In this document: positions 1 to 22,399 of the stretch, one piece after another
Layout: the number at the start of each line of letters is the position of its first letter
Numbering within the stretch: position 1 is the stretch's first letter
Assembly (NCBI GenBank): GCA_963715195.1
Contig: CAVQRT010000010.1
Location: 1 to 26,652, forward strand
DNA length: 26,652 nt
Direction of reading: 5' to 3'
From: Thermodesulfovibrionales bacterium
GTDB lineage: Bacteria > Nitrospirota > Thermodesulfovibrionia > Thermodesulfovibrionales > SM23-35
Notes under the pieces: generated by a model
Databases searched by the model: none
What the model saw: the letters and a program-made list of their open reading frames with translations, nothing else
What the model was told of the DNA's origin: nothing
Translations under genes and position numbers: made by a program

Positions 1-1222
1 TGTCCGACTGCCGTCGTCTTGTCTGTCACAAAGGCGCTCGATGATTCTTCTATAAGGTGGCACCACCGCCTGCTGCTTAAACTTGCGGATTGATGTATTC
101 TGCCTTTCTGCTCGAAGACCACCCTGCTTCATTCTTCTTTTTTCGGGGCAACCGATTTCTTTTTAGGGCCTCAGCTTGGCCTGCTGAAGGAGCATTTTCG
201 GAGTCATGGCGAGAGTCCCAGCAGTCTTTGCGGGACAGGTTATTCACACTCCCAAGGGGCTCCAGGGGTCTCATTGTTCCTGTTCGGTTGGTACAGGTCG
301 TCCGTCCTCTCTGCGCCTTCCCGGAGGAGGAGCCGAAGCCGATGACCGAAGCCAACGGAAGATCGTGAAGTTTACGCGGCTATTGCATCCATGCAGGAGA
401 CGTCTGCGATGTTCCGTGACATAGTTCTGCGTCGATAAGGCTTATCAGGATCTCATCATGGGGGTCTCTTATGATTTGGAGACGTGTCTCGTGGGAATCG
501 TTGATCGACAAGGTAACGTAATTTTTGATCGAAACATCGGATGGTCACTACGAAGAATTCGTTCAATTCGAGACTCAAAGATTGTGTCCGGCATATCGCG
601 GAGCATGTTGAAACATGAGTCTCCAAATGCGTGTCCAGAAAATCGGATGGCAGGGATTCACTGAGGGCAAGGACAGCAGATCTGCATGTAGCTCCTCTGG
701 CGAGGCTGATGTTGCTGATGCCATGGCGACGCCGCTTGCTCTGGCAGAATGGAGAGATGTTCAGGATACTCGGAGGCAAACCAGCTCATGATACACTTGC
801 CTTCCACTGGGCCCGACTAATGACCCTTTACGCAGCCGCATATGATGGAGCTGACTACAACGAAGATCACTGATCCGCACATCGAGAATACCGTCTCGAC
901 TCCGAAGAGCATAGGTATTCTTGAAGCCTACCACGGTACCCTGATTCGCCGTTCTGAAGCCGATAGAATCGATGATCAGACCGGAGCCAGATCTGAATCA
1001 TTGCAACGGTGCACAATACCGCGCCGATCTGTATGTCAATTGAGAAAGCTCGCGAGTCATGAGAAGGGATTGCGGAAGAGTCTCCTCGACGTGGTTCAAT
1101 AGCTTTCCGTCCTTCGACCCTGTTTTCCTGTGCAACCCCATATCGTACAGATCAAGAAGTATGTCCATACATGTCCGGATAGCCAAGGTCAATTCACGGG
1201 CTTGATCGGAATGCTCTATTAA
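1..1222 (+). CDS. mvhA: [NiFe]-hydrogenase large subunit, group 3c/MvhA-like; 5'-truncated, many apparent sequencing indels
   Basis: Stitched frames give CPTA at base 1 (end of the L1 RxCGxCPxxH motif), LMYSAFLLEDH, VAPLARL, MFRILGGKPAHDTLAFHWARL, ITDPHI..TPKSIGILEAYHGTLI and IIATVHNTAPICMSIEKA. An L2 motif AFRPxDPCFSCAT at ~1102-1140 needs indel correction and is followed by a short extension. End coordinate approximate. Confidence 0.85.
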
Positions 1223-1316
1223 TATCGAGTTGAAAAGGGGATCACAGAGTGCGAAAGGTGTTGATTACTCAATCATTTGGTGAAAATATATATTCCAGAG
1301 GAGAAATATAGTAACA

Positions 1317-1540
1317 ATGGCGACAGTAACGGTAGACTCTAGAGTCTTCAGATGCCTCAACCTATTTAAAAATAGCCGCAAGAGTCAGCTAGAGCTGAAG
1401 TCCGGTTGATACACTCGAAGCATCGGCTGATTGTCCTCCTTTTGAAAAGGACATTCATAATCATGTGAAAGAACAAAGAAAGACACTCAATCAATAAAGG
1501 ATGAAGGCACCAGAAGAGCGCTGCAAGATCCAGTTTTTAA
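1317..1540 (+). CDS. tusA: TusA/SirA-family sulfurtransferase (sulfur carrier), frameshifted
   Basis: GAGGAG RBS, ATG at 1317. Stitched reading is MATVTVDSR..RCPQP..K...LKSGDTLE..ADCPPFEKDI...CERT.KTL..IKDEG...RCKIQF*, giving the CPxP motif and ~75 aa size. Confidence 0.75.
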
Positions 1541-1573
1541 TTGATATCATCAACAATTCTGTAAAAGGTTCAT

Positions 1574-2724
1574 ATGCAGCATTACATGAAGATTTGCTCC
1601 AAAACAATTAAAAATTCTCCTATCTCCTTGACAAGAACTTCAAGACTCCCTCACGGCAAGACAGAAATGGATCTACTGATGAGCCGCGTCTTGATGAACT
1701 GGCCCGGGTATCTGCATGCGGACTGCATGTGCCTGTTGCTTTGGGTCTGGCCGACGATCCCGGGCAGTCTTCGGCACTGTTCGGATATGACCGGTTCAGT
1801 CGCACGATCGGCAGATGCTCGAGGCGCTCAGCTTGATCCGAGGCTCAGAAAGACGACGTTGCCATCAGGATCAATTATGCAACAATTGAAATCAGCTCAT
1901 CCAGAAGCTGACAGCAAAGAATCCCGACGGATCAGAGCAAAACATACAAAGACTTCAGGAGAACATCCAAGATGATGATGTCGAAGTGATTCACTACAAT
2001 GAAGCCGTTTGCTAGTCTCGATTCCCTGAACCACTTCCACCAGATGACCTTGATTAGACCGATCCACAAGAAGGCCTGGAGCCGAGACCAGTCACCTTCG
2101 AACCCCGAAGCCGAACAGATCACACAGGTCATCGGAGAGATTTATCCTGAATGCCACGGTGTATTGAGGCATGAGCCGGTGGCAAGTTTTTTCTTCCTCG
2201 TGGAATTGCGCAGGTGCTCGATATCCTCACTTTAATTAATGTCATGAATCCCTCTGCATTGCAGTCTGTCCCAATGTACCGCGGTCTTGCCCGTCTGATC
2301 GGATGGATGCGCCGCTTTACAAGGTGACGTACAGGATGAAATCAATTTTCTGAAAACGCGCTATTGTTTCATGATTATAATTTTCTTCTCTGCATGTGAA
2401 AAGATTGATTCGTATGGAGAGAGGACGGAAATTTTCAAGGCAAAGTTCAAAGATAGAAGAGTTCGATCTCCTTTTTTCCGGATATATGAGCCTTAATCCG
2501 GACGTCATCATTGTCACCGGGGACCATTCCACGCCTGCTGTTTTGAAGCCATCGCTCACCCTGCCGGTTTCTCCTCCAAATCACCGTATGTGCTCGGGCA
2601 GACCTGCCAGCGGTTTACCGAGCGGGAGTGTATCAGGGGCGAACTGGGTATCTTCCGCATAGTTAACCTGATGACTTTAGCTCTGCCAACGCGGCAGGGG
2701 CTCAGAGAGAGCTTTGGTGCCTGA
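1574..2724 (+). CDS. apgM: 2,3-bisphosphoglycerate-independent phosphoglycerate mutase, ApgM type, heavily frameshifted
   Basis: Fragments LDELARVSACGLHVPVA, LFGYD, DDVAIRINYATI, RIPTDQSK, TDPQ.EGLEP, LHVK.IDSYGE.GNF, DVIIVTGDHSTPA, FTERECIRGELG and FGA* ending at TGA 2724. Confidence 0.8.
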
Positions 2725-2769
2725 TAGACGGTACGTGACCCCTCTGAATCCTCTAACTCTCGAATCTTC

Positions 2770-4185
2770 TTGTCGGATACCCATTGCCATCTTGAGATGG
2801 ACGCCTTTAACCCTGACAGGGAAGAGGTAATCCAAAGGGCACGCGATGCAGGGATAGGGGCAATTATTACGATCGGATCCGACCTCGCCGGGAACAGGGG
2901 AGGCCTTGAACTCTCACAAAAATACGATTTTATTTACTCAACAGTCGGCTTTCATCCCCATGATGCAAAGGACTTTACGGAGGAAATATTCACCCAGATA
3001 AAAGAATGGGCAATTAAATACAAATTCCAAATCCCAAATTCCAAAAATCAAACTTCAAATACCAAAAACCAACATAGCAAAGTGGTTGCGATTGGGGAAA
3101 TAGGACTCGATTATCACTACGACAATTCCCCGCGCGAGGTTCAGCGCATGGTATTCGGAAAGCAGCTTCGATTAGCGAAAGAACTGGACCTCCCGGTGAT
3201 AATTCACAGCCGGGAAGCGAAAAAGGATACCCTTGAGATCATTATGCATTCTGGAGTGAACCGTGGTGTTTTCCATTGTTTTTCCGGCGACATGGATATG
3301 GCAGAGAAGGCGATGGCATTGGGGTTTCATATCTCGATTGCCGGCCCTGCGACCTTTAAGAATGCAAAGAGGCTGAGGGAGATCGCTCAGGCATTACCGG
3401 ATAATTATCTGCTCATCGAAACAGATGCACCATATCTGACTCCAGAGCCTTTCAGAGGCAAACGAAACGAACCGTCCTATCTTGTCCATACTGCACAGGC
3501 AATTGCAGCCTTAAGGGGCGTCAGCCTCGAGGATGTGTCGCGGATTACCACCCTGAATGCAAAGCTGCTTTTCAGAATCGGCGGGATGCCGGATCAGAGG
3601 AAAATTGCCTACCAGATACGGGACAGTCTCTATCTCAACATCACAAACCGGTGCACCAACCGCTGCTCCTTCTGTATCAGGTTCCAATCGGATTATGTCA
3701 AAGGTCACAATCTGAGGCTTACGGATGAACCTTCTGAAGATGAGCTGAAACAGGCCATCGGGGCTCCGGGCCGGTATAAAGAGATTGTCTTTTGCGGTTT
3801 TGGGGAGCCGTTAATCAGACTTGAGGTAGTAAAAAACATCGCCCAATGGGTCAAGGAGAACAAAGGGCGTGTCAGAATCGATACAAACGGGCAAGGGAAC
3901 CTGATACACGGAAGAAATATCCTGCCTGAATTGCAGGGTATTGTCGACAGCATGTCGATAAGCCTCAATGCCCAGAACAAGGAACTATACGATGCTGTCT
4001 GCCGACCATCCTTCCCGGATGCATATGACGGGGTACTCTCTTTCATTAGGGAAGCACAGAAGGTAATCCCTCACGTACAGGTTACGGTCGTCGCGATTCC
4101 CGGTGTTGATGTAGGAAGATGCAGGGAGATCGCGAAGGAATTAGGCGTAGATCTCAGGGTGAGAGAGCTGGATGTTGTTGGGTGA
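2770..4185 (+). CDS. tatD: TatD-family hydrolase fused to a TatD-associated radical SAM domain
   Basis: TatD metal ligands DTHCH, GFHPH, AIGEIGLD, IIHSRE, VFHCFSG and ETDAPY. C-terminal YLNITNRCTNRCSFC (CxxxCxxC) and VFCGFGEP. True start may lie slightly upstream. Confidence 0.92.
   Translation: MSDTHCHLEMDAFNPDREEVIQRARDAGIGAIITIGSDLAGNRGGLELSQKYDFIYSTVGFHPHDAKDFTEEIFTQIKEWAIKYKFQIPNSKNQTSNTKNQHSKVVAIGEIGLDYHYDNSPREVQRMVFGKQLRLAKELDLPVIIHSREAKKDTLEIIMHSGVNRGVFHCFSGDMDMAEKAMALGFHISIAGPATFKNAKRLREIAQALPDNYLLIETDAPYLTPEPFRGKRNEPSYLVHTAQAIAALRGVSLEDVSRITTLNAKLLFRIGGMPDQRKIAYQIRDSLYLNITNRCTNRCSFCIRFQSDYVKGHNLRLTDEPSEDELKQAIGAPGRYKEIVFCGFGEPLIRLEVVKNIAQWVKENKGRVRIDTNGQGNLIHGRNILPELQGIVDSMSISLNAQNKELYDAVCRPSFPDAYDGVLSFIREAQKVIPHVQVTVVAIPGVDVGRCREIAKELGVDLRVRELDVVG
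3019..3074 (+). repeat. Degenerate 7-bp tandem array inside the tatD reading frame
   Basis: tacaaat tccaaat cccaaat tccaaaa atcaaac ttcaaat accaaaa accaaca, translated within KYKFQIPNSKNQTSNTKNQH. Confidence 0.8.
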
Positions 4186-4721
4186 TCGTTCGAAATGATA
4201 TCCAGTGTCCTTCAGCAATCCCATGTTTATCACAGAATCCGGCATTGACCTCAACGACATATTTCGCATTCTTTATAGACCGGATAGCATTATACGACAA
4301 TGGTTCTGTCTTTTTATATATTTTTATGACCTGCTTTTTCTCGTCAGCAAAGATGATATCGAGCGGGATATAGGTATTTCTCATCCAGAATGAGAGCGGG
4401 CCAGAATCCTGAAAGATAAATAACATTCCCAGCGTTATCAGGCAGGGAGCTCCGGTACATCAATCCTCGTGTTCTCTCAAAATCGGTATCAGCAATCTCG
4501 ATATCAATTTTTGTGATTTCCTTCCGGTTTTTCTCCCCGAGGAAGATTAGTTCACCTTCTTTAGTAAATTGAGGGGATTCTGCCGCAATGGCGGATGGAG
4601 TGAAGAAGCGCTGGGCATTTACCTTTGAGCATCCGGAGAAGAGGGAGTGATGATGGACAAAAAAGGCGAGGAGGCAAAAGATGATCGCGATGAAAGCAGG
4701 GGTTTTGATTTTTCTTAGCAT
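4154..4721 (-). CDS. DUF192 family exported protein (one frameshift near 4426)
   Basis: Hydrophobic N-terminus. EIADTDFERTRGLMYR..LPDNAG joins MLFIF...LSFWMRNTYIPLDIIF...YVVEVNAG in the adjacent frame. Confidence 0.88.
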
Positions 4722-4766
4722 ATATTGCTTACAAAAGTGTCAGTCCATGAGTCGTATAAATTCTTG

Positions 4767-4839
4767 TGTCATTCCCCGACGTGATCGGGGAATCCATTTT
4801 TATTAATTCTGGATTGTCCGGTCAGGCCGGACAATGACA
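4767..4839. repeat. GTCAT-tagged REP-like bipartite palindrome
   Basis: tgtcattccccgacgtgatcggggaatcca ... tggattgtccggtcaggccggacaatgaca: two hairpins with inverted ends. Confidence 0.8.
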
Positions 4840-4871
4840 ACACATACTTTCTGCGCAGTACGCTGCCAAAC

Positions 4872-4912
4872 AAAAACCGGACTGCCTATTATCTAACCTG
4901 TCAGCAGTCCGG
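4872..4912 (-). terminator. Putative intrinsic terminator downstream of the dsbA-like gene
   Basis: Minus strand reads ccggactgc-(18 nt)-gcagtccgg followed by TTTTT. The loop is long. Confidence 0.5.
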
Positions 4913-4989
4913 CCATTCCATTCGGTACCCGAAACTTTCCTATCCCTGTCTTCAAAAAAAATTACACTTTGCCGAAATACCCTATTGTG

Positions 4990-5758
4990 CTACTCCTTGT
5001 CAGGATTGAGAAGCTCGTCTATCGCGGCCTTGAAAGCAGCATACGGCTGAGCACCTTTTACGATTTTTACAGCTTTGACGCTTTTTGCCGTTCTCCTGGA
5101 CCCATCCGAGGAGTGATGATGGTGTTCCTCTAACGCCGGCCTTCTGCCCCTCTGACATATCTTTCTTAATCTCATCAGCAGTTTTTCCGCTGTCGAGACA
5201 TTCCTTGAATTTTGGCATGTCCAAACCAAGCCCTTCAGCATACTTTACCAGGTCCTCAGGATTCAGGGCTTTTTGGTTTTCGAAGAGCTTGTCGTGCATC
5301 TCCCAGAATTTTCCCTGGTCTCCGGCACAGGCGCCTGCCTCGGCAGCCTTAAAAGCCTGTTTGTGGAACCCGAGCGGAAAGTCGAGGAAGTAGTATCTGA
5401 TTTTGCCTGTATCGACATAATCTTTGACAATCTGCGAGACCGTCTCACGGACGTGTCTGGAGCAGAAAGGTCACTGATAATCAGAAAACTCGATGACTGC
5501 GAGTTTGGCATCCTTGCTGCCCTTGAAAGGATCCCCGTCGACATTGACGACGGTCTCCTTGAATTCGGCGGGAGCAGGTCTTGCCTTGATCTGACTCTTA
5601 ATTCCCTGGAGTTCTTTCTGGATTGCCTGCTGCCCTTCCTTCAACCCCTTGATGTCTTCTTTGATGGTGTCAATTTCTTTGCTACTCTGAGAAAAAGCGG
5701 TTTGTGCGCTGAGGAGAAAAATAATAACCAGCGCGGGTACGACGAAAAAATTCTTCAT
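4990..5758 (-). CDS. Exported DsbA-family thioredoxin-fold oxidoreductase, probable selenoprotein (UPFC)
   Basis: Signal peptide, coiled coil, then DPFKGSKDAKLAVIEFSDYQ-TGA(5471-5473)-PFCSRHVRETV continuing in frame to DFPL..H..A..AAEA..CA.DQGKFWEMHDKLF and GVRGTP (cis-Pro). A +1 slip in an A-run near 5083 precedes GAQPYAAF. Confidence 0.88.
5431..5466 (-). promoter_or_regulatory. Bacterial SECIS-like hairpin immediately 3' of the in-frame UGA
   Basis: mRNA UGA-CCUU-UCUGC-UCC-AGAC-A-CGUC-[CGUGA]-GACG-GUCU-C-GCAGA. The apical loop starts 21 nt after UGA and has G at its second position. Confidence 0.7.
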
Positions 5759-5924
5759 ACATGCTCCTTCCTGTAATTTATTTTAAATAGTTTATAAGAA
5801 AATGGAGCAGAAGGGAAGAGAAAATAAAAGTTTTAACAAAGGCTGGTGTCCGGGTATGTTTTTCATGAGCCGCGCTTCTATTCAAGGTCGAAAGTGGTAT
5901 ACTGTATTGCAGGAGATCCCTGGC

Positions 5925-6623
5925 ATGAGTGAAAACGTTAAGATAGATTTCCTTCAAAACATACAACTCTTTTCATCGCTTGCGGAGCATGAACTGCAGC
6001 AGATCGCCGACAAAATACGGATAGAAGAATTCAGAAAGAATCAGATTGTTCTTCGCGAGGAAGATACCAATGAATACATGTACATCATTCTGGATGGACA
6101 GGTGAAAGTTATTCAGGCAACAGAAGATGGCAAGGAGATACTCCTTGCTATTCATAAGACCCACGATTTTTTTGGGGAAGTTTCGCTGATCGACGGGATG
6201 ACGGCTCCGGCAACCGTGCAGGCGTCGGAAGATTCTTTTATCGCATTTATTTCAAAAAAGGATTTTTTTGCCCTGCTCTCCGCGCAGCACAAAGTGCTCG
6301 AAAAATTGTTGGAGATATTGTGCTCGCGACTCCGTGATTCATGGAAAAGAATATACCTCCTGAATTTCAAGCATGCCTCAAACAGGGTCAAGACCTTGTT
6401 TCTCTCTCTTTCTCTTGAAAATGGCATCCGAACTCCTGAGGGCATCGTGATCAACCTGAAGCTTACCCATCAGGAAATTGCTGACATGACCGGATTGACA
6501 CGCGAATCGGTTACCCGCGTACTTGACAAATTGCAGAAAGACGGAGACATAGCCGTGCTCAAAAACAAACGGATATGCCTGAGTCAGAAGTTCGTAAAGA
6601 GCACAAATGTAATGGAGCAATAG
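5925..6623 (+). CDS. Crp/Fnr-family transcriptional regulator
   Basis: cNMP-binding-like domain (YIILDGQVKV, FFGEVSLID) and HTH LTHQEIADMTGLTRESVTRVL. AGGAG at 5911 favours ATG 5925 over 5802. No Fnr Cys cluster. Confidence 0.9.
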   Translation: MSENVKIDFLQNIQLFSSLAEHELQQIADKIRIEEFRKNQIVLREEDTNEYMYIILDGQVKVIQATEDGKEILLAIHKTHDFFGEVSLIDGMTAPATVQASEDSFIAFISKKDFFALLSAQHKVLEKLLEILCSRLRDSWKRIYLLNFKHASNRVKTLFLSLSLENGIRTPEGIVINLKLTHQEIADMTGLTRESVTRVLDKLQKDGDIAVLKNKRICLSQKFVKSTNVMEQ

Positions 6624-6703
6624 TACAGAAATGCAAAAGGATATAAGTGCAGAAGTGCAATAATGCAGAAGGCTTCTGAGCCTCTGTTCTTTTGCTCTTC
6701 TGT
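6624..6703. repeat. Degenerate 8-bp arrays in inverted arrangement
   Basis: gtacagaa atgcaaaa ggatataa gtgcagaa gtgcaata atgcagaa, followed by complementary-type units cttctgag cctctgtt cttttgct cttctgta. Confidence 0.6.
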
Positions 6704-6717
6704 AGTCAAACCGGCAA

Positions 6718-6994
6718 CTAAAGCAAAAAAAGATAAGCCCAGAGAAGACATCCTGAGGTTGCGAGAATTTTTTCAGGCAGGCTCAGGCGTTTGCTCCTGA
6801 TAATGAAGTAAATGCTGAGTGGAGATGTAAGAAAGCATGCCATCAAATACACCCATTTGGGAATGTGCGTTTTTTTCCGAGGGGATATGGTAGTAGCCGC
6901 TGCAAACAGGGCATTCGATCTCTCCGTTGAGTCTCTGCCCGCATTGAGCACATCGTGTGATCCCAAGTGCCTCATCGAGTTCGTCCTGGTGCAT
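6718..6994 (-). CDS. Small hypothetical membrane protein with an N-terminal zinc ribbon (one frameshift)
   Basis: MHQDELDEALGITRCAQCGQRLNGEIECPVC joins RKKTHIPKWVYLMACFLTSPLSIYFII..ILATSGCLLWAYLFLL*, giving two CxxC motifs and two hydrophobic segments. Confidence 0.65.
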
Positions 6995-7010
6995 GAGGAA
7001 TATTATACAT

Positions 7011-7163
7011 AGAATTCGAGGATCCGAGGATTCAAGGGGGATCCAAGTGCAGATTGATAGTAATGATTATGACTCAATGAATGATAATTATTTAGCTTTA
7101 TCTATGCTCTTTATAATGACTCTGTTTCAAAATTTTAGTTGGATCCTTGATCCCTTGGACCCC
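7011..7163. repeat. Inverted 8-bp GGATTC(G/A)A-type arrays enclosing an AT-rich core
   Basis: agaattcg aggatccg aggattca ...atccaag on the left and ggatcctt gatccctt ggacccc on the right. Confidence 0.55.
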
Positions 7164-7176
7164 TATTATTTAACGT

Positions 7177-7854
7177 ATGCGTATTCTCTTAGTTGAAGAC
7201 GAAAAAAATGTAGCTGCCTTTATTAAGAAAGGGCTTGAGGAAGAGACCTATGCCGTTGATGTTGCCGAAGAGGGTCCTGAAGGTCTGTTGATGGCAACGG
7301 AAACCGATTTTGATCTCATCATCCTCGACGTCATGCTTCCCGGAATGAATGGAATAGAATTGTGCAAGACTCTCCGTACAAAGGGTATCATAAAGCCGAT
7401 CCTTATGCTGACTGCTGTTGATTCCGTGGAAAGAAAGGTCGAGGGTCTCGAAAGCGGCGCCGATGATTATCTTGTCAAACCGTTTGCATTTTCTGAACTG
7501 ATTGCGCGGATTAAGGCATTGCTCAGGAGAACTCCGAGCATCGTCAGCGAACTATCTCTCAACGATCTGCGAATCGATCTTTTTTCACGGAGAGTGTTCA
7601 GAGGGGGGAGAGAGGTTGTTCTTACACAAAAGGAATTTTCGCTGCTTGAATATCTGCTCAGGAACAAAGGAAGAGTCCTGTCAAGGACACAAATAATCGA
7701 GAATGTGTGGGGTTACGATTTTTCACCGGGTACAAATATTGTTGATGTACACATTAAGTCCCTGCGGGAGAAGGTGGACTCAGACTTTGAGAGGAAGCTC
7801 ATCCACACGGTAAGGGGAACGGGTTATATCATGAAGGTTGACAATGATCTTTAA
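7177..7854 (+). CDS. OmpR-family response regulator (CusR/CzcR-like)
   Basis: MRILLVEDE, LDVMLPG phospho-Asp, GADDYLVKPF and winged helix NIVDVHIKSLREK..IHTVRGTGY. Confidence 0.93.
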   Translation: MRILLVEDEKNVAAFIKKGLEEETYAVDVAEEGPEGLLMATETDFDLIILDVMLPGMNGIELCKTLRTKGIIKPILMLTAVDSVERKVEGLESGADDYLVKPFAFSELIARIKALLRRTPSIVSELSLNDLRIDLFSRRVFRGGREVVLTQKEFSLLEYLLRNKGRVLSRTQIIENVWGYDFSPGTNIVDVHIKSLREKVDSDFERKLIHTVRGTGYIMKVDNDL

Positions 7855-9223
7855 GACATTCAGAGGAAGATTTGTTTTCATCTCTGCAGGAGTGGTTTCG
7901 CTCTTGGGGGTTGCTTTTGCGTTATTGATCTATTTCTCTTACAGCAAGACCCTTATGGAGTCAATCGACAACTCCCTTCTCGCAGTTGCGAAAAGAGGTT
8001 CTGCCGGCGACGGCGAGGATATCTCTGATCCGAATATCAGCGTGGAGCTCCTCAGGATTGTGAACAATGAGTTTTATCAGGTTATTACCCATCAGGGAAA
8101 AGTGACAATCGCCTATCTTGAGAGCAATTATCCGTGGCCTGTCAACCGTCGATTGATCGATAAAGCTTTAAAGGGCTTGCCACAGTATGAGACTGTATAT
8201 TACAAGTTTGAGAATCACCGGATACTCTATTATCCCGTTGATTCCGATACCGTTCTCCGTACAAGAAAATCCCAGGAGAGTTTTGACAGGGCAGTCGCGG
8301 AGCTGAAGAGGCTCTTGCTCTTTTCCTTCCCTCCTTTTTTGGTGATTTCCCTGATACTCGGATGGGTATTTGCCGGGAGAATGCTTGATCCTGTCAGGAG
8401 AATGAAGTCGCTCACCGAGCAGATCAGGCAAGGCAGGTGGGATAATCAATTGGATCTTGAATCTTACGGGAAGGAGATCAGTGAACTGGGATTGATCCTG
8501 AATGAAATGATCGGAAATATAAAGCGGTCGATGGAGTCCCAGAAGCGCTTCACTGCTGATGTCTCCCACGAGATACGCTCGCCGCTGACATCTCTGAGGG
8601 GGAGCATAGAAGTTGCCTTGAGAAAGAAAAGGGCTCCGGAAGAGTATGAAGACGTTTTGAGGAGTAATTTATCCGATGTTATCCGGTTGACGAGGTTGAC
8701 CGACAATCTTTTGTTCCTTTCAAGGGCCGACCATCAAATACTTTCTCTCAGAAGGCAGTGGTTTGATGTCAAACACTTGCTCGAAGCCGTTGTTGAAGGG
8801 TTCCGCGACAGAGCGCTTCAGGAGGGTGTGCTCATTCACGAGGACTACCAGCACGAGCTTGAATTGAATGGCGATATCGAACTTCTTGAGCAGTCATTTT
8901 CGAATGTCATCGATAATGCAATCAAATACACGCCCCGCGGTGGCAGTGTGACCATAAAATCGCGTGCAGAAGGAGATGTTGTGAAAATATGGGTCAGCGA
9001 TACGGGAATAGGCATCCCGGAGGATCAGATCCCTCAAGTCTTCGAGCGGTTTTACCGGGTCGACAGGGAACGGTCGAGAAGGCTCGGCGGAACAGGCCTG
9101 GGGCTTGCGATAACGAACTGGATAATTAAGGCCCACAATGGTAATATTTCTGTCGAGAGCATTGTTGATAAAGGGAGTGAATTTACCATCACCCTGCCCA
9201 AACTAACTGAAATCAGTATTTAA
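7838..9223 (+). CDS. Membrane sensor histidine kinase (HAMP-HisKA-HATPase)
   Basis: Two TM segments, H-box FTADVSHEIRSPL, N-box NVIDNAIKY, DTGIGI and GGTGLGL. Overlaps the response regulator gene. Confidence 0.93.
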   Translation: MTMIFKTFRGRFVFISAGVVSLLGVAFALLIYFSYSKTLMESIDNSLLAVAKRGSAGDGEDISDPNISVELLRIVNNEFYQVITHQGKVTIAYLESNYPWPVNRRLIDKALKGLPQYETVYYKFENHRILYYPVDSDTVLRTRKSQESFDRAVAELKRLLLFSFPPFLVISLILGWVFAGRMLDPVRRMKSLTEQIRQGRWDNQLDLESYGKEISELGLILNEMIGNIKRSMESQKRFTADVSHEIRSPLTSLRGSIEVALRKKRAPEEYEDVLRSNLSDVIRLTRLTDNLLFLSRADHQILSLRRQWFDVKHLLEAVVEGFRDRALQEGVLIHEDYQHELELNGDIELLEQSFSNVIDNAIKYTPRGGSVTIKSRAEGDVVKIWVSDTGIGIPEDQIPQVFERFYRVDRERSRRLGGTGLGLAITNWIIKAHNGNISVESIVDKGSEFTITLPKLTEISI

Positions 9224-9310: not shown

Positions 9311-9342
9311 TTGACATCAATTATATTACAGTGTAATATAAT
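9311..9342 (+). promoter_or_regulatory. Sigma70 promoter overlapped by a perfect palindromic operator
   Basis: TTGACA (9311)-17 nt-TAATAT. ATTATATTACA-G-TGTAATATAAT (9320-9342) has perfect 11-bp arms. Confidence 0.75.
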
Positions 9343-9361
9343 GTTTACAAAAGGAGGTACA

Positions 9362-9778
9362 ATGAAAAGTGTCGTAAAAAGTGTCCGGCTTGACAAAAAA
9401 ACTCTCTCTGAAGTTGAAAGTCTTCTTCGATTCAAAAATGAGACGTTTTCCAGTATGACAACCGAATTAATCACAGAAGCTATTAAAATGAGGAAGTGCC
9501 CGGGAATAATTTTTGTTGAAGGGGCAACAGGAAGACGCGCGAGGATTGAGGGTACGGGAATAGATGTCTGGGAACTTATCTCTGCTTATCATGATCTTAG
9601 GGATGATCTTCCTTCTTTAAAGGAGGCATTTCATTGGCTGACAGACAGGCAGATTATGGCGGCAATTGGCTATGCACGGATATATCCTGATGAAATAGAA
9701 ATGCTTATCAGGAAAAATAGGGAGTGGAGTAGAGAAAATGCCCGCACTGAATTGCCTTTTACCCGACAGAAAGGATGA
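9362..9778 (+). CDS. DUF433-domain antitoxin with an N-terminal RHH-like segment
   Basis: AAGGAGG RBS before ATG 9362. PGIIFVEGATGRRARIEGTGIDVWELI...LTDRQIMAAIGY. 4-bp overlap with the PIN-like gene. Confidence 0.85.
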   Translation: MKSVVKSVRLDKKTLSEVESLLRFKNETFSSMTTELITEAIKMRKCPGIIFVEGATGRRARIEGTGIDVWELISAYHDLRDDLPSLKEAFHWLTDRQIMAAIGYARIYPDEIEMLIRKNREWSRENARTELPFTRQKG

Positions 9779-10119
9779 AACTTCTTCTGGATGAGGACCT
9801 CAGCCCGAAAATAGCCATTATTCTGAGAGACAAAGGTATAGATGCGCTGAGCATTCACGAAATTGGTAGGACAGGATTTACTGATTATGAGCAGTTGGAA
9901 TATGCGGCCTCTGAGGGTCGTTGTTTTGTGACACGCAACAGGAATGATTATATCCTTCTTACACGCCAATTTTTCTCAAATGGTATGTCCCACAAAGGAG
10001 TAATAATTCTGCCGGCGACATACAAACTCAATGACTTCAAGGGAATTGCAAATGCGCTTTCAAAATATGTGTCAAAATGGGAAGAAGATTCCTCTGATTA
10101 TCTCTTTGACTTTGTTTGA
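9775..10119 (+). CDS. DUF5615 PIN-like toxin
   Basis: MKLLLDEDLSP...GIDA...G.TDYEQLEYA..EGRCFVTRNRNDY...HKGVI. Confidence 0.85.
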   Translation: MKLLLDEDLSPKIAIILRDKGIDALSIHEIGRTGFTDYEQLEYAASEGRCFVTRNRNDYILLTRQFFSNGMSHKGVIILPATYKLNDFKGIANALSKYVSKWEEDSSDYLFDFV

Positions 10120-10139
10120 TGATTTGCTTCTTGAAAGAT

Positions 10140-10253
10140 ATTGCCCGACACCCGATCTGAGTCGAGGGCAGGCTTGATTGGGCAATCCAATGAAAGGAAC
10201 TGGATTCTCGGGCCCTCCAAAATGAAGGCGGACAAGCAAGCCAGAGAATGACA
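10140..10253. repeat. Degenerate nested GTCAT-family palindrome
   Basis: attgcccga...cttgattgggcaatcca ... tggattctc...gagaatgaca, with inner hairpins. Confidence 0.6.
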
Positions 10254-10368
10254 GTTTTGAGTTTGGCTTTTAGCCCTGTGCTCTTGGCGCAGGGTTCTTA
10301 ACTTTCCTTGCATATATGTTTCAACTTTATCTGTATTCGGCATTATTGATGGATAGCATATATCAAAT

Positions 10369-10782
10369 TTATCTCTGCCAAGGATTAATTACTTCAAGCC
10401 CCGGATAATCGAAATCTTTGGCATTGCGTGTAACAAGCCGTAACTCGAAATGTAAGGCTGTCGCAGCAAGAAGACTGTCGATGGCAGGAACCGGGCGGCC
10501 AACCTCTGCGAGCAGTCTGCCCCATCGGTCGGCAACAGGAATATCAATTGGAAGTATACGGCCCCCGAACCATGCTGTAAGTTCATGATCAAGCCAGAGG
10601 CGAAGCTTCTCTCGCCGTTTTTTATCCGTATGCCTTTCAATGCCTTTCCGAATTTCGCCAAGTGTTAGGACGCTAATGAAGAGTGCCTCAGTCGGAATCT
10701 GGTCAATCCATGTAATTACTCGTTGGTCCTGTTGTCGTCGTACCGTCTCTGAGATAACATTTGTATCGAGTAAATAGCTCAC
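10369..10782 (-). CDS. vapC: VapC-family PIN ribonuclease toxin
   Basis: YLLDTNVISE, ISVLTLGEIRKG, IDSLLAATA..LVTRNAKDF. Confidence 0.92.
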   Translation of the reverse strand: MSYLLDTNVISETVRRQQDQRVITWIDQIPTEALFISVLTLGEIRKGIERHTDKKRREKLRLWLDHELTAWFGGRILPIDIPVADRWGRLLAEVGRPVPAIDSLLAATALHFELRLVTRNAKDFDYPGLEVINPWQR

Positions 10783-11033
10783 CGGATATCAGTCTCCCGG
10801 GTTATGGTCTGGACCCGCTTCATATCAATATCCGTGCCGTAGAGAGGCGATTTCCGCATGAAATCGACAAAACTCTCCAACGGATGCTTGAGCCGCTCAT
10901 ACTCATCTCTCGAAATAATCACAGCAGTCGGCTCCCCGCGCATCGTAATAGTCTGTGGCCCTTCTCTTGAGGCCTGCTTGATTACCTCGCTCAAACGCGC
11001 TTTTGCTTCTTGCAATTGCCAGGTTCTTCCCAT
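10779..11033 (-). CDS. Phd/YefM-family antitoxin
   Basis: WQLQEAKARLSEVI..A..EGPQTIT.RGEP.AVIIS. 4-bp overlap with vapC. Confidence 0.92.
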   Translation of the reverse strand: MGRTWQLQEAKARLSEVIKQASREGPQTITMRGEPTAVIISRDEYERLKHPLESFVDFMRKSPLYGTDIDMKRVQTITRETDIR

Positions 11034-11045
11034 AAAATTCTCCTT

Positions 11046-11060
11046 ACTAGTCAGACTAGT
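11046..11060. promoter_or_regulatory. Palindromic operator candidate for phd-vapC
   Basis: ACTAGTC-A-GACTAGT directly upstream of the RBS on the minus strand. Confidence 0.6.
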
Positions 11061-11147
11061 CTAGTATACTCTCTGCTGAGCAGGAGATCAAGTGTTTTGT
11101 TTGCAATGATGACTCCTTGCCTCTAGTCTGCTGTCCCATAAAAAACT

Positions 11148-11223
11148 TGTCATTCCGAACTTGTTTCGGAATCTGTCTTCTTTATATGAGGAAAGACCCT
11201 GAAACAAGTTCAGAGATGATGAC
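11148..11223. repeat. GTCAT-tagged bipartite palindrome
   Basis: tgtcattccgaacttgtttcggaatct ... agaccctgaaacaagttcagagatgatgac. Confidence 0.75.
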
Positions 11224-11236
11224 GGAGTCCGGACCG

Positions 11237-11285
11237 GTACAAATTGCGAATGGTATTGACAATTTGTACTATCGGCATATAGCAT
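11237..11285 (+). promoter_or_regulatory. Promoter with a 10-bp inverted repeat upstream of the AAA ATPase
   Basis: GTACAAATTG-13 nt-CAATTTGTAC overlaps TTGACA (11256). TAGCAT at 11280. Confidence 0.6.
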
Positions 11286-11291
11286 AATCAT

Positions 11292-12443
11292 ATGATTCAG
11301 AGAAACGCATACCATACTCTAATGCGTCTGGCGAGCGGTTTCCCCGTTATGGCGATCACCGGCCCTCGCCAGTCAGGCAAGACAACGCTTGCTAAAATGG
11401 CTTTCCCTCATAAGCCGTATCTATCTCTGGAAGACCCCGATGTGCGAAGCCTCGCAGAGGAGGACCCAAGGGGGCTTCTGTCCAGATTTTCAGATGGAGC
11501 TGTATTGGATGAAGTGCAGAGGGCTCCAGAACTCTTTTCGTATTTGCAGACGCATGTAGATGCTCATATGCGCCCCGGGATGTTTGTGCTCACGGGTTCC
11601 CAACAGTTCGGCCTGCTGTCAGGCCTCAGCCAATCACTTGCAGGTAGGGTGGGGCTGGTGCAATTGCTCCCTTTCTCGGTCAGCGAACTGAAAGCAGCAA
11701 AACGTCTCCCTGTAACTATAGATGAATTGCTTTTTCAAGGCCTTTATCCTCCGATTTACGACCGTGACCTTATGCCTGGTGATTGGTTTGCAGGGTATAT
11801 GATGACGTATATAGAGCGAGATGTGAGGCAGTTAATCAATGTGCGCGACCTTTCCACATTTCAGCGTTTCGTAAAGATGTGCGCTGCCCGCACAGGCCAA
11901 TTGCTGAACCTTTCATCCCTCGCTGTTGACTGCGGCATTACGCATAACACGGCAGCTGCCTGGATTTCTGCGCTGGAAGCGAGCTACGTTGTGTGGTTAC
12001 TCAGACCTCATCACCGCAACTTCAATAAGCGTCTTGTCAAATCGCCGAAGCTGTATTTCGTTGATGTTGGGCTTGCTGCATGGCTGCTCGGAATCAGGGA
12101 ACTCGAACAGATATCATTTCACGCCCAGCGAGGCGCACTGTTTGAAAATTTTGTGATTATAGAGTTTCTCAAGGATCGGTTTCATCAGGGATTGCAGTCC
12201 GACCTCTACTTCTGGCGTGACAGCAAAGGGTTAGAAATCGACCTTATTTTGGCAGAAGGGGAAAATCTGAGACCTGTCGAGATTAAATCGGGTCAGACGA
12301 TTGTTCCGGAATTTTTCTCCAATGTTCAGAAATGGGCAGCCTTATCGGGCAACCCAAACCGTCCCATAACGATTGTATACGGCGGAGCGCGGGAACATGC
12401 AAAAGGAAGCGTTACGATAATTCCATGGAAAAAACTACCTTGA
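11292..12443 (+). CDS. AAA_14 ATPase with C-terminal DUF4143 (PD-(D/E)xK-like) domain
   Basis: GPRQSGKTT, VLDEVQ, LTGS, LAGR, KSPKLYFVDVGL, GALFENFV and YFWRD..GLEIDLI...VEIKSG. Confidence 0.92.
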   Translation: MIQRNAYHTLMRLASGFPVMAITGPRQSGKTTLAKMAFPHKPYLSLEDPDVRSLAEEDPRGLLSRFSDGAVLDEVQRAPELFSYLQTHVDAHMRPGMFVLTGSQQFGLLSGLSQSLAGRVGLVQLLPFSVSELKAAKRLPVTIDELLFQGLYPPIYDRDLMPGDWFAGYMMTYIERDVRQLINVRDLSTFQRFVKMCAARTGQLLNLSSLAVDCGITHNTAAAWISALEASYVVWLLRPHHRNFNKRLVKSPKLYFVDVGLAAWLLGIRELEQISFHAQRGALFENFVIIEFLKDRFHQGLQSDLYFWRDSKGLEIDLILAEGENLRPVEIKSGQTIVPEFFSNVQKWAALSGNPNRPITIVYGGAREHAKGSVTIIPWKKLP

Positions 12444-12798
12444 TATTCTGTCTCGGGAAACGAGGACTAACTATCAGCTGGTGCGATGAAAAAGAAAGTG
12501 AAGCAACAATTGTATTCCTTATGCAGCATTCGGTACACATAGACCAAGATCAGTAGACCTTAAACAGTAGATAGTAGACAGCGAGAAAGCAAAAAACCAA
12601 AATCCACAAATTGACGACGGGATCAGGATACTGAATTAATTGCAGAGATTTCTGCGCAAATGTTACACACCCCTGCACCTCTCTCAGGGGGAGCGAAGGT
12701 GTTGGACTTATCGGGAGGGGTCAGGAAAGCAAAGTTGAACCCATAGGAATTGAAAGTTTTACGTGCATTTAGGTAAAAACAACTTGCTGAGGTGCAGA

Positions 12799-13016
12799 TT
12801 ACTTAGCTGCTTCCACAGGGATGTTTTCAATACTCACATTTGCTATATCGGCGAGACTGAATCGTTGACTCACATCCAGAACCTCGATCCCAATAATTTG
12901 TCCATTCTTATCGAAATCGATGACAACGCCATCTTCGATTTCTTTGCTTTTGGCGACATATTCTTCCTAAAATAAACGTAAATCGCATCATCTTCCTTAC
13001 TATATTGTATTTTCAT
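12799..13016 (-). CDS. DUF2283 family small protein (one base missing near 12967; absent from the ORF track)
   Basis: MKIQYSKEDDAIYVYF joins EEYVAKSKEIEDGVVIDFDKNGQIIGIEVLDVSQRFSLADIANVSIENIPVEAAK*. Confidence 0.8.
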
Positions 13017-13051
13017 TGTTTTCTTTTATGATTTCGGACACTAAAAGTCAG

Positions 13052-13530
13052 CTACCTTGATTTTATCTTATCTTGGAGGATGTCAGGAAGTATCGAATCA
13101 AGGAATTCTGAAGGGTCCACTATCTTGAAGGAATAAGTACCCCCTTTCTTGAGTTTTCCAAAGTCTTTCTTATCGCCTGTGACGAGAAAGTCTGCTTTAC
13201 CATTTATGGCGGAAGCAAAACCGGGAGGTCTTTCCGGAGGATATCCATGATCTGTTTAGAAAACTTTTCAATCTCATCTGTCGGTGGTAGAGGAATAATC
13301 TCGAGACTCAGTTCGGGGAAATATTTATTGTATACAGGTAGAGCGCTTGATAATTTTTTGGACAGGTTTCGTTCAATTTCGGTTATATTGTACCTGCCTG
13401 TTATGCCTGTGAGAAAAGGAAGTCCCGTGCAGAGTATATCGAGGATAATGCGCGGTGCTCCCTTTTCAGAAATAAGACCCGAGAGAATGACGTTGGAATC
13501 CAGAAATACTCTAACGACTTTTTTTGCCAT
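13052..13530 (-). CDS. PIN-domain toxin (PIN_3-like), frameshifted
   Basis: RVFLDSNVILSG...KDLPV joins ASAINGKADFLVTGDKKDF, then SFKIVDPSEFLDSILPDILQDKIKSR*. Confidence 0.82.
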
Positions 13531-13798
13531 ATCGCTCTTTGAAAAGGGTTTTTCTCTCCTCCTTTAGGCCGGCTAACAGGTCTTCGAGTGTAAGACCAGA
13601 CTCCTTCATTATCCTTCCGATCTCCCTTCTTGCTTCGTCAAGCATGAGCCTTCTCGGCGTTATGAATATGGATTCACCGCAAGGAATAATCGAAACTACT
13701 TGACCCTCTTCAAGATTGCTCATATCCCTAATCTTTTTTGGAATAGTGAGCTGACCCCGAGACTTTATTTCCGCTAAAAACGGCTTTAGATTGCGCAT
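13511..13798 (-). CDS. AbrB/MazE/SpoVT-family antitoxin
   Basis: IKSRGQLTIPKKIRD..NLEEG. GGAGG RBS. Overlaps the PIN gene. Confidence 0.88.
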   Translation of the reverse strand: MRNLKPFLAEIKSRGQLTIPKKIRDMSNLEEGQVVSIIPCGESIFITPRRLMLDEARREIGRIMKESGLTLEDLLAGLKEERKTLFKERYGKKSR

Positions 13799-14553: not shown

Positions 14554-17500
14554 ATGAAAGCATAGGTATGCATTTGTTATGATTCTTTCTAATGAGCATA
14601 TTCTTCTGTTACTCATCTGCTGATGGCAGTAACTGCTCCAAGCAGTCTCTCTGCCATCAGCGGTATCAACGAGTCAGATTGATTTAAGCTGGACGGATAA
14701 CTCGAACTGATGAGAACCGGGTTTGAAATAGAGAGGTCGAATACGTTCTCGGAGGCTCGTTCAGCACAGATAGCAACGGTTGGGGCGCAGGACGACTTCA
14801 TATCAGAATACCGGCCTCAATGCATCTACGACTTATTACTATCGCGTACGCAGCTATAAGGTAAAGAATAAGAAGTTTACCGATTACTCAAACATCGCCA
14901 GTGCAACGACGCAGGGCGCGGGCAGATACAACACCGCCTGCGGTATCGATCACGAGCCCCTCATCCGGCACAACCTATACGAGTGCCCAGACGGTGACGA
15001 TTTACGCATCGGCATCGGACAATGTGGGCGTGACGAGGGTGGATTTCTATGATCGGGGTACTTATAAAGGAACAGACACGACTGTCATCATACACGTATT
15101 CCTGGACATTCACGAGTGCGGACAATGGCACGCACAACTGGACGGCGAGGGCCTATGATGCAGCGGGCAACAGCTCGACCTCCAGTGTTGTGAGTTTGAC
15201 GGTCAATATCAGCACAGCAGATACAACTCCCCCAACGGTATCGATTACAAGTCCTTCTTCTGGAGACGACCTACACAAGTGCGCAGACGGTGACGATTTA
15301 CGCATCGGCCTCGGACAATGTGGGCGTGACGAGGGTGGATTTCTATGATGGGGGTACTTATAAAGGAACAGACACGACTTCATCATACACGTATTCCTGG
15401 ACATTCACGAGTGCGGACAATGGCACACACAACTGGACGGCAAGGGCTTATGATGCAGCAGGCAACAGCTCGACCTCCAGTGTGGTGAGTTTGACGGTTA
15501 ATATTGGTTACGTTCAGCCCAACTGCACCGAGCAGTCTTTCAGCGCAGCTGCAGTTTCATCCAGCCAGATCAATTTAAGTTGGACAGACAATTCTTCCAA
15601 TGAAAGTGGGTTCAAGATAGAGAGATCGACTTCTGCCACCAGTGGTTTCAGCCAGATAGCGACGGTGGGAGCGAATGCCACGTCTTATTCGAACTCGGGT
15701 TTGAGTGCCTCGACGACCTATTATTACAGGGTCCGTGCATACAACTCAGCGGGGGATTCCGGTTATTCCAATACCGCGAGTGCGACGACACAGGGTACGA
15801 CGATAACCGTACCAGATGCACCAACCAATCTGACCGCAAGTGCAGTTTCGTCCAGTCAGATCAATTTGACATGGCAGGACAATTCAACAAATGAAGAAGG
15901 GTTTCACATCTGGCGATCATTCACCAGTGGGCTGGGTCCAGATTGCAGTTGTTGGAGCGAATACGACATCTTATGCAGATATCGGCTTAAGTGCATCTAC
16001 GACATATATGTACACTGTTCGTGCATATAATTCGGTAGGGGTACTTCGAGTTGGTCAAATGTTGTATCCGCGACCACCTTGTCGGGAACGGGCGACACGA
16101 CTCCACCGACTGGTACGATAGCAATCAATGGTGGGGCAACCTTTACTAATACAAGATCGGTGAGCTTAACGTTATCTGCCACCGACGATTCGGGGGTGTC
16201 TCAGATGTGTATCAGTAATACGGCGTCATGTTCAGCATGGGAAGCTATGCGACATCGAAGGCATGGACGTTGACGAGTGGAGACGGGACGAAGACGGTGT
16301 ATGTGTGGTACAAGGATGGGGCAGGGAACACGTCAACTGTTTATAGCGATACGATTTTCCTCGATACCGTGCCTCCTCAGTGTTCAATTATCATCAATAA
16401 TGGGGCCACGTATACGACCTCTGCTGCAGTGACGTTGACGTTATCGGCTGTAGATCCAAATCCGGGAAGCGGTCTTGCGCAGATGTGCGTAAGCAATGCA
16501 AGTAGTTCCTGTTCGTCGTGGGTAGCTTATGGAACATCAATGAACTGGACGTTGCCTTCGGGAGACGGCACAAAGACAGTTTATGCGTGGTTTAGGGACA
16601 ATGCCGGGAATCAAACTGCAACGCCATCAACAACTTCGGATACCATTGTTCTTGATACGGCAGCACCTCCGGTGCCATCGGGGTTGACGGCGACAGCAGT
16701 TTCATCCAGTCAGATCAACCTCACCTGGAACGCGGTAGTTGATACATACAGGCGGCTCAGGGCTTGCGGGGTATAAGGTATATCGGAGTGTGACACAGAT
16801 CGGAACAACAGCGGCCACGAACTATGCAGATTACGGACTGACCGCGAACACGCAGTACTGTTATCGGGTGGCATCATATGATAATGCGGGGAATGTATCT
16901 GGTCAGTGCACGCAGGCGTGTGCAACGACGCCATCAGGCTCCCAGCCTGGGTCACATATCTGGTCGGAGCGATTTGGCGGGGCGAGTAATGATTTTGGAC
17001 GGGCAGTGGAGGTAGATAGCACCGGCAATCTAATCGTAGCGGGACGGTTTATGGGAACAGTAAATTTTGGAGGTGGGCCTTTAACGAGCATTGGAAGTTC
17101 AAGTCTTTTTGTAGCGAAATATACTACTGAAGGAACATACCAATGGTCAAAGGCTTATGGTGGGGCGAGCAGTGATGTGATTGTTCAGAGTATAGCAATA
17201 GATAGCAGTGGGAATGTAGTAGTGGTTGGATATTTTACCGGCGCGGTGAATTTTGGAGGAGGAGTGCTTACAAGTGCTGGAGGGAATGATATCTTTCTTG
17301 TGAAGTACTCCGGAGCAAATGGAGCGCATGTTTGGTCAAAGAGGTTTGGCAGTTCCCAAAACGATGCAGGGTATGGAGTAACTGTAGATGAGTTCGAGCT
17401 ATGTTATCGTGACAGGTGGATTTAGAGGATCGGTAGATTTTGGTGGGGTAGCGTTGGTTGCATATGCATCAAGCGCGGACTTCTTTATAGCTAAATATAC

Positions 17501-18246
17501 GGGATCAGGCACTCACCAGTGGTCAAAACGGGTAACGAACAATGGTGATGATTACGGCTATAGTGTGGTGACAGACAGCAGTGGAGATATTCTTCTGACT
17601 GGTTATTTTTCGGGCAAGATTGACTTTGGCGGAGGAGTACTCACCAGCGCAGGTCTTTTTGACATATTTGTTGCCAAGTATTCAGGTGCCGGTACATATG
17701 TGTGGTCGAAGCAGTTGGGAAGCACGCAGGACGATTTTGGGTACGATATTGCCGTGGACAGTAGCGGTAATGTAGTGGTCACAGGGGTATTTAAAGGTTC
17801 TGTAAATTTTGGTGGTGGGGCCACTGACCAGCGCTGCTTTGCAGGATATATTTGTGGCCAAGTATAGTGGGACAAATGGTGCCCACCAATGGGCGAAGAG
17901 ATTTGGTGGGTCGAGCGACGATGTCGTTAACAAAATTGCTGTTGATGTAAACGGCGATGTGGTCATGACAGGATATTTCCAAAAGACCGTGGATTTTGGA
18001 GGTGGTCCTTTAAGTAGCATGGGTCTCTTTGATGTTTTTGTAGCTAAGTATGCCGGGACAAACGGAGCACACAAGTGGTCGAAGAGATTTGGAAGCACCA
18101 GCAACGATGCAGGCTACGGAATTAGCACGGACAGTTCTGGCAATGTGATTGCAACAGGCTATTTTATGGGATCGGTAGATTTTGGCGGCGGAACATTAAC
18201 CAGCGCCGGTACCCTCGATGTGTTTGTCGTTAAATTGGCTCAGTAG
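14554..18246 (+). CDS. Large secreted FN3/Ig-like/7-bladed beta-propeller protein, paralog 1 (multiple apparent indel errors)
   Basis: AAGGAGG RBS and signal peptide. Four FN3 repeats (AVSSSQINLSW..YYYRVRAY), two Big_7-like repeats (DTTPPTVSITSP..ARAYDAAGN), two Ig-like repeats (INGGATFT..GDGTKTVY.W.KD.AGN) and seven W.KRFG..D....AVD..GN....G.F.G.V.FGGG.LTS.G..DIFVAKY blades. Confidence 0.85.
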
Positions 18247-18257
18247 TGAATGCATCT

Positions 18258-18290
18258 ATATGTGCGGGGTCTTTAGCCCGGCACATATTT
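18258..18290 (+). terminator. Hairpin terminator candidate after paralog 1
   Basis: atatgtgc-ggg...ccc-g-gcacatat followed by a short T run. Confidence 0.5.
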
Positions 18291-18552
18291 CTACAACTAA
18301 CACCTTCTAAATATTTTCTTTTCGAATAAAATTTATTGAGGAGCTCAATGCTGCTCTTTTTGTCCTCATTGATGATTTTTTAGGTTTTATCCCCCTCGCA
18401 GTCTTTTCCCCAAAACATTTTGAAAGTATCTATCAGTCAGAATTATCCCCTGTGATTTGGCTCACTGTGTCCATATGCTTAAACGGTTTTAAATATAGCA
18501 GTGAATGAGGAAGCGTGAGACTGGTATAAATAAATTTTTTAAGGAGGTAGTC

Positions 18553-22241: not shown

Positions 22242-22399
22242 ATTTTCGGTTCTAAGAAGTTATGCAAAGAAGGGGGGCTTGGGCGCACCCCACAGTGAAT
22301 GCACTAAGTTGGAGAGGCATTAGAATAAGCCTATTTAAGGTGGGAATTCTGATTAAGTCTCCTTTACATTTGAGCACCCGCAATTATGGCTAATTTAAT

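Follow-up and report, generated by a model that had tools for sequence, protein, structure and literature searches.

A predicted selenocysteine-containing DsbA-fold protein with an N-terminal heptad helix, stored as split genes, in a Thermodesulfovibrionales bacterium

Introduction

A TGA codon in the place of a catalytic cysteine raises two questions, namely whether it is a stop codon or a codon for selenocysteine (Sec) and, in the latter case, what the resulting enzyme does. We address both for a gene on the minus strand of a 26,652-nucleotide stretch of DNA (the window; positions 1 to 26,652 of contig CAVQRT010000010.1, here C10, of the Thermodesulfovibrionales assembly GCA_963715195.1, here G000), which encodes a predicted exported protein of DsbA fold. 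An earlier note, made from the letters of the window alone, had proposed a periplasmic Sec oxidoreductase with an N-terminal coiled coil. The recoding, the export signal and the coiled-coil-type helix of that proposal are supported by our analysis, but 'DsbA-like' holds for the fold only, the job of the protein being likelier that of an isomerase or reductase.

Probable recoding of UGA at codon 96

The in-frame TGA opens the motif U-P-F-C (surrounding sequence E-F-S-D-Y-Q-(TGA)-P-F-C), exactly where the earlier note had located the first cysteine of a CPFC active site. It had also claimed more than 120 open codons with DsbA motifs beyond this point; we count 156, about 130 of them homologous to relatives. 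Translated through the TGA, the sequence scores 98 bits on Pfam Thioredoxin_4 and 61 bits on DSBA (PF01323) over residues 1-225.

The hairpin that had been described downstream, a candidate selenocysteine insertion sequence (SECIS) with an upper stem AGAC-A-CGUC/GACG-GUCU, a loop CGUGA and an outer stem UCUGC/GCAGA, equals the minimum-free-energy (MFE) fold. The 50 nt from the UGA fold at -19.5 kcal/mol (z = -3.3, a stability reached by one of 200 shuffled sequences), while z is -2.2 for 40 nt without the UGA and -1.6 for the gene copy on contig C14 of the same genome. The published model for bacterial SECIS elements describes a loop of 3-9 nt, an upper stem of 4-16 bp, a G in the first two loop positions, a distance of 16-37 nt from the UGA and an MFE of at most -7.5 kcal/mol (PMC13188914). 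Compared by hand, the hairpin agrees with all four published criteria: a 5-nt loop with G second, a stem of 4+4 bp, an MFE of -15.2 to -19.5 and a spacing of 21 nt, a bacterial SECIS distance as the earlier note had stated.

Codon usage provides a further line of evidence. We collected 133 distinct TGA sites over all loci, most of them with a search pattern that itself contains TGA, and since these sequences are kin the counts do not represent independent events. V-R-E-T stands at +7 to +10 in 102 of the 133, and 96 of these 102 are spelled exactly GTC CGT GAG ACG, a share expected to be about 0.8% from codon use elsewhere in the same genes; we conclude from this difference that the hairpin core fixes synonymous codons. 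Arginine is encoded by CGT in 106/112 TGA genes versus 4/20 Cys genes, and threonine by ACG in 119/122 versus 13/68. The 13-nt core is constant across a third-position GC content of 0.30 to 0.98, and among members having the N-terminal helix the four upper-stem pairs are formed in 86 of 88 with TGA versus 3 of 43 with Cys. A pattern open at the codon (TGA, TGC or TGT, with any V-R-E-T codons) gave 6 and 1 matches in two other phylum samples of 401 genomes each, all of them TGA with the same core. Several observations limit this evidence: as the upper stem is invariant, it shows next to no compensatory covariation; roughly half to two thirds of members, and no more, retain the lower and outer stems; of 114 full-length database homologs with C at the site, seen as protein records, 30 have V-R-E-T as well; and the only Cys V-R-E-T gene with DNA at hand retains the hairpin core.

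The machinery for Sec incorporation is complete in G000, with tRNA-Sec (73.4 bits), selA (624), selB (356) and selD (369) all over their curated cut-offs. The selD gene itself contains a TGA, and its hairpin has a similar apical part, GUC-CGUCA-GAU. Close orthologs (57-93% identity) are held by six of 61 related genomes, five with TGA and one, in G002 of the same genus, with TGT. In a 401-genome phylum sample, 36 genomes match at E <= 1e-45, nine of them with TGA in the match, and a metagenome scan using a pattern that ends one codon before the hairpin core returned at least 122 stretches. Of the genomes tested for selA, a match came from 10 of the 11 with TGA (the exception is 89% complete) and from 8 of the 14 with Cys.

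Could the TGA be a true stop, so that the gene is split or a pseudogene, or could it be a sequencing error, given how many errors the contig contains? The window contig does carry indels. One extra base, which the earlier note had not recorded, moves its last ~29 codons to another frame, and homology goes on in the other frame beyond residue ~226. C10 duplicates C14 at 89% identity across its first 6.6 kb with 153 gap openings (20-32 per 500 bases in the first 2.5 kb), and the longer comparison of window 1-9200 with C14:4643-13815 is a mosaic, 100% identical at 3000-4000, 70-90% elsewhere and indel-rich at 1-2700. The neighbouring DUF192 gene (window 4154-4721, minus strand), which lies downstream of the selenoprotein gene in three genomes of the genus, is split by a frameshift in the window and whole (214 residues) on C14. 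Databases list the gene as pieces of 95 and 102 residues, the split-gene annotation that the earlier note had foreseen. The same TGA nevertheless recurs on C14, in a contig of the public run X2 that spans 5435-5883 of the window and does not differ from it at this codon, at the 133 distinct sites and in 7/7 codon-open matches, with the downstream residues and hairpin conserved and the Sec machinery complete, and we regard a true stop as extremely improbable. As the TGA falls on the catalytic Cys position, is followed by a SECIS-type hairpin under synonymous constraint and occurs beside complete Sec machinery, UGA96 is, as far as sequences can tell, almost certainly read as selenocysteine.

The frameshift, for its part, is very probably an assembly error, because the extra base is absent from the C14 copy, which has an unbroken frame of 255 residues, from contigs of runs X2 and X3 (whose letters there are C14-type and give no direct test of the window allele) and from database protein P0006, which has the window's N-terminal allele and stays in frame to the whole C-terminus, and because DUF192 is likewise split in the window only. 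C10 is probably the haplotype of a sister strain, with which the contamination figure of 6.6% for G000 fits. Contig C21 repeats the ccdA region of contig C2, as the window repeats C14. The runs holding the window stretch are sediment, estuary and marsh metagenomes.

Architecture and fold

Among the Sec coiled-coil loci whose upstream frame is long enough, 81 of 86 have a hydrophobic stretch and two of 86 a lipobox-like motif; the first 95 residues of the window protein contain no Cys. We predict from the sequence that the protein is exported by means of a signal peptide that is cleaved off. The mature N-terminal extension of ~45 residues is a single helix (residues 6-37 of the AlphaFold model, at a confidence score, pLDDT, of 93-95), whose 32 residues form heptads with an Ile/Leu core and one Gln layer; in rows pre-selected by the heptad pattern, the core columns are 98-100% hydrophobic and Gln is found in 45 of 50. 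This helix probably bundles the protein into an oligomer, likely a trimer.

The catalytic domain has the features of a class II DsbA fold, i.e. a thioredoxin fold with a helical insert, an xxxC motif and a T/V-P loop. The T and P of its G-T-P loop are invariant, the full G-T-P being found in 39 of 42 full-length Sec members, and a second Cys pair (Cys144 and Cys187) is invariant in 50/50 and 39/39 aligned members. We predict a class II DsbA-like domain of the BdbD or Wolbachia alpha-DsbA1 type that includes this second pair.

Possible function in envelope disulfide chemistry

We propose, at a probability of roughly 55%, that the protein is an oligomeric, probably trimeric, periplasmic selenium isomerase/reductase that works by analogy with ScsC and is kept reduced through CcdA. 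This reading is favoured because of the N-terminal helix, the lack of a DsbB or VKOR match, the presence of CcdA and the reducing nature of Sec. Among the DsbA-fold proteins that have been characterised, an N-terminal helical extension gives a trimer and accompanies isomerase activity, and the protein without it is a weak oxidase (PMC6450060, PMC8900818). Neither DsbB (PF02600) nor VKOR (PF07884) had a match in any of six genomes, G000 and five relatives with the gene (one 97.8% complete, five 100%), a result short of proving absence. G000 has a stand-alone CcdA in two syntenic copies, one probably from a contaminating genome. A model CXXC protein becomes strongly reducing when its first Cys is replaced by Sec, the UXXC form of Grx3 having a potential of -260 mV (as cited in PMC9304195).

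In such a mechanism, SelB with Sec-tRNA would bind the hairpin and decode UGA96 by the established pathway, and the exported chain would bundle via the heptad helix, bringing several catalytic domains together. The targets of the Sec96 selenolate would be envelope-protein disulfides that are wrong or oxidised, Cys99 would resolve to a selenylsulfide, and electrons would return from the cytoplasm through CcdA, either directly or via a periplasmic thioredoxin. That termination at UGA under selenium shortage exports a helix-only fragment able to join and damp the oligomer is conceivable, but we consider it highly improbable.

A number of findings speak against an isomerase/reductase, and some of them point to a dithiol oxidase of the DsbA/BdbD type, one that forms disulfides in exported proteins and is re-oxidised by an unrecognised partner or small oxidants, in which the helix anchors or oligomerises the protein without changing catalytic direction. 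The best profile and Foldseek matches, which are also the nearest solved relatives, are oxidases or presumed oxidases, namely alpha-DsbA1 (110 bits), C. diphtheriae DsbA/TsdA and BdbD, while ScsC scores only 58-63 bits, and the ~45-residue extension falls short of the 50-60 residues in ScsC. The oxidising DsbL has CPFC as its motif (PMC8405906). Isomerisation could be covered by a separate DsbC-like TGA gene (U-P-Y-C, C3:283983) in G000, and the second Cys pair implies some disulfide-making route outside the cytoplasm. It should also be noted that activity cannot be inferred from the oligomer state alone, as ScsC proteins can act both ways (PMC11634996), that ScsB/DsbD-alpha (PF11412) had no match in G000 and that no redox partner gene is found among the conserved neighbours of 130 loci. 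The missing DsbB/VKOR match, the lowered potential of Grx3 with first-position Sec and the isomerase activity that accompanies N-terminal helical extensions in characterised cases stand in the way of an oxidase, which we judge unlikely.

Less likely again is a protein that contributes little to folding in general and has a specialised protective role, as a reductant or as a scavenger of metals or oxidants; it would repair sulfenic acids like DsbG or bind Cu(I) like StScsC/CcScsC. The reduced active site of ScsC proteins binds Cu(I), and these proteins protect against copper and oxidative stress (PMC8900818, PMC11634996); the literature names the nearest selenoprotein group 'DsbG-like', and a gene for a Crp/Fnr regulator adjoins in this genus. 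That neighbour was, however, observed solely in close relatives and at one other locus, and the conserved neighbours include no genes for copper or peroxide functions and no scs genes.

The DsbC-like gene of G000, at about 283983 on the plus strand of contig C3, encodes an exported protein with a TGA in D-P-D-U-P-Y-C and a hairpin of its own; its relatives have TGA at loci L037, L040, L042 and L043 versus Cys at L036, L038 and L041. It is a probable second periplasmic selenoprotein of this genome. Together with our preferred isomerase/reductase reading, it leads us to a broader and more tentative suggestion, which we hold to be possible rather than probable: a Sec-containing, coiled-coil-trimerised disulfide isomerase family with a nearly invariant 13-nt SECIS core would exist in at least three phylum samples, in bacteria without a DsbB/VKOR pathway, and here, beside a DsbC-type selenium enzyme, would constitute selenium-based envelope disulfide repair hidden as split genes.

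Relation to known families

Selenoproteins of the UxxC type called 'DsbA-like' (COG2761) and 'DsbG-like' (COG1651) were catalogued in 2005-2006 (PMC1088965, PMC1794560); that DsbA-like ones exist had been stated in the earlier note. A 2026 review lists 'DsbG-like, NF041057' and describes such proteins as largely uncharacterised, nearly all thioredoxin-fold bacterial selenoproteins being only predicted, without measured function (PMC13188914). NCBIfam NF041057, the Rcas_1661 family thioredoxin-like (seleno)lipoprotein, shares the Thioredoxin_4/DsbA fold, first-position Sec and export with the window protein, and all 50 aligned members match it (best E 9.4e-45, weaker than a 169.7-bit match at 8e-50). 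The window protein, however, reaches 127.7-134.5 bits against a cut-off of 190, and its subfamily lacks the lipobox, has the heptad helix in place of a Pro/Thr-rich tether and carries an extra beta-hairpin after the T-P loop. Being below the cut-off and without a lipobox, the subfamily is on sequence grounds a sister of NF041057 and not a member. Lipoproteins near that family, such as the one at L141 (184 bits, 46% identical), have the same SECIS core as the window gene. None of the other NCBIfam selenoprotein models matched any of the 50 members at E <= 0.001.

The 'DsbA-like protein form 1' (PF01323, COG2761; PMC1088965, PMC13188914) likewise has UxxC, and the window protein matches PF01323, as given above. 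The latter scores higher on Thioredoxin_4, however, and fits FrnE-type structures over the C-terminal half only. In comparison with the trimeric ScsC-type isomerases (P. mirabilis ScsC, C. crescentus ScsC, Wolbachia alpha-DsbA2 and Salmonella BcfH), the window protein is 20-24% identical, has Sec for the first Cys, one straight 32-residue heptad helix, an extra Cys pair, no scsB neighbour and no DsbD-alpha match, and its trimer is a prediction. The G-T-cisPro loop of these proteins is present, but it is not diagnostic, as alpha-DsbA1 also has T-P. We suggest, by analogy, that the protein works like ScsC, without filing it as ScsC. The class II DsbA oxidases (Wolbachia alpha-DsbA1, B. subtilis BdbD and C. 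diphtheriae DsbA/TsdA) are closest by profile and fold, and alpha-DsbA1 shares the second Cys pair, the C-terminal hairpin and T-P; they have Cys, however, their solved constructs lack a heptad helix, and alpha-DsbA1 pairs with DsbB, for which the six genomes gave no match.

Full-length database relatives bear the names 'protein-disulfide isomerase', 'DsbA family protein' or 'thioredoxin domain-containing protein' and have C at the Sec site in 114 of 120 cases and W in four, while the TGA forms are stored as the split pieces mentioned above. Our literature searches turned up no description of a Sec DsbA-fold protein with a coiled coil or a trimeric state, although catalogue supplements may list members under broad names. 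The Sec DsbA-fold subfamily is widespread and routinely mis-split, and is of an already catalogued kind of selenoprotein and not a new principle. The finding corrects a common mis-annotation, the nearest NCBIfam selenoprotein model not capturing the subfamily.

Two further groups of DsbA-fold proteins were also seen. One, from other taxonomic families of the same order, comprises short exported proteins that carry U-P-H-C, with a GGUCCG element conserved downstream of the UGA and TGA in 10 of 10 loci seen (L023-L026, L028, L030-L033 and L035), and DsbA-fold proteins with U-P-Y-C, an N-terminal beta-repeat region and a different hairpin are encoded at L022, L027 and L029.

Exchange of Sec and Cys

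In a quick tree of 157 catalytic domains, not rooted by test, 105 rows (52 Sec and 53 Cys), most of the helix-bearing ones included, form one branch with a support of 98. Across the whole tree the distribution of Sec and Cys takes 15 changes, of which five or more are forced by strong branches. Two Cys genes sit among Sec genes: L018 (G002), which has lost the hairpin core in a genome that retains selA and tRNA-Sec, and L061 (C-P-I-C; L061:3265-3330), which keeps the full SECIS core in a genome, of completeness not given, with no selA match. Their placement suggests Sec-to-Cys reversions, and the hairpin of L061 is likely a fossil SECIS. Natural Sec/Cys pairs within one genus (G000 and G001 versus G002), together with the fixed SECIS, could provide a clean system for studying selenium's role in envelope disulfide chemistry and Sec-to-Cys reversion. 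Tandem paralogs were observed at L136, L165/L166, L172/L173 and L175, where two Sec copies are adjacent or a Cys copy lies beside a Sec copy.

Features of the gene and its neighbours

The coordinates of the gene and its parts are collected in Table 1.

Table 1. Position and basis of the features of the selenoprotein gene in the window
Feature	Position	Strand	Basis or remark
Whole gene	4990..5758	minus	ATG 5758 to stop 4990-4992, UGA = Sec (inferred) at codon 96; 255 residues when intact (copy C14:9757-10521)
Predicted Sec-pathway signal peptide, residues 1-23	5690..5758	minus	Basic start, hydrophobic core, A-F-S end, no lipobox Cys; by eye
Amphipathic heptad helix, residues 26-57, predicted oligomerisation stalk	5588..5683	minus	AlphaFold model and core columns
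In-frame UGA, inferred selenocysteine 96	5471..5473	minus	Aligned homologs, relatives' TGA
Active-site motif U-P-F-C, residues 96-99	5462..5473	minus	Sequence and alignment
SECIS hairpin	5431..5466	minus	Invariant core CGUC-CGUGA-GACG 5453-5441, apical loop 5449-5445, 21 nt after UGA
Cys144, first of invariant second Cys pair, inferred structural disulfide	5327..5329	minus	Aligns to Cys of 3f4r; disulfide by analogy with Wolbachia alpha-DsbA1
Cys187, partner of Cys144	5198..5200	minus	Invariance and structure alignment
G-T-P loop, residues 211-213, inferred cis-proline loop	5120..5128	minus	T and P invariant
+1 frameshift at 5-base homopolymer, probable assembly error	5082..5088	minus	No such base in C14 copy, X2/X3 contigs, P0006

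Elsewhere in the window, a TatD nuclease carrying a fused TIGR04038 radical SAM domain is encoded at 2770-4185 (plus strand). One or two very large surface proteins, broken into many open reading frames (ORFs), occupy 14780-22288 (plus strand), with fibronectin III/Ig-like repeats (by eye), SBBP-like beta-propeller parts and an internal duplication (16093-18224 versus 20089-22212, 84%). About ten tandem 87-bp repeats at 23099-24149 (minus strand), frameshifted, encode a Cys-rich unit, the ORF tested having no NCBIfam match. Toxin-antitoxin-like pairs, VapC-like with a Phd antitoxin and AbrB-type with PIN-like partners, are clustered at 9311-13798 and 25287-25932, together with an ATPase-like ORF at 11292-12443.
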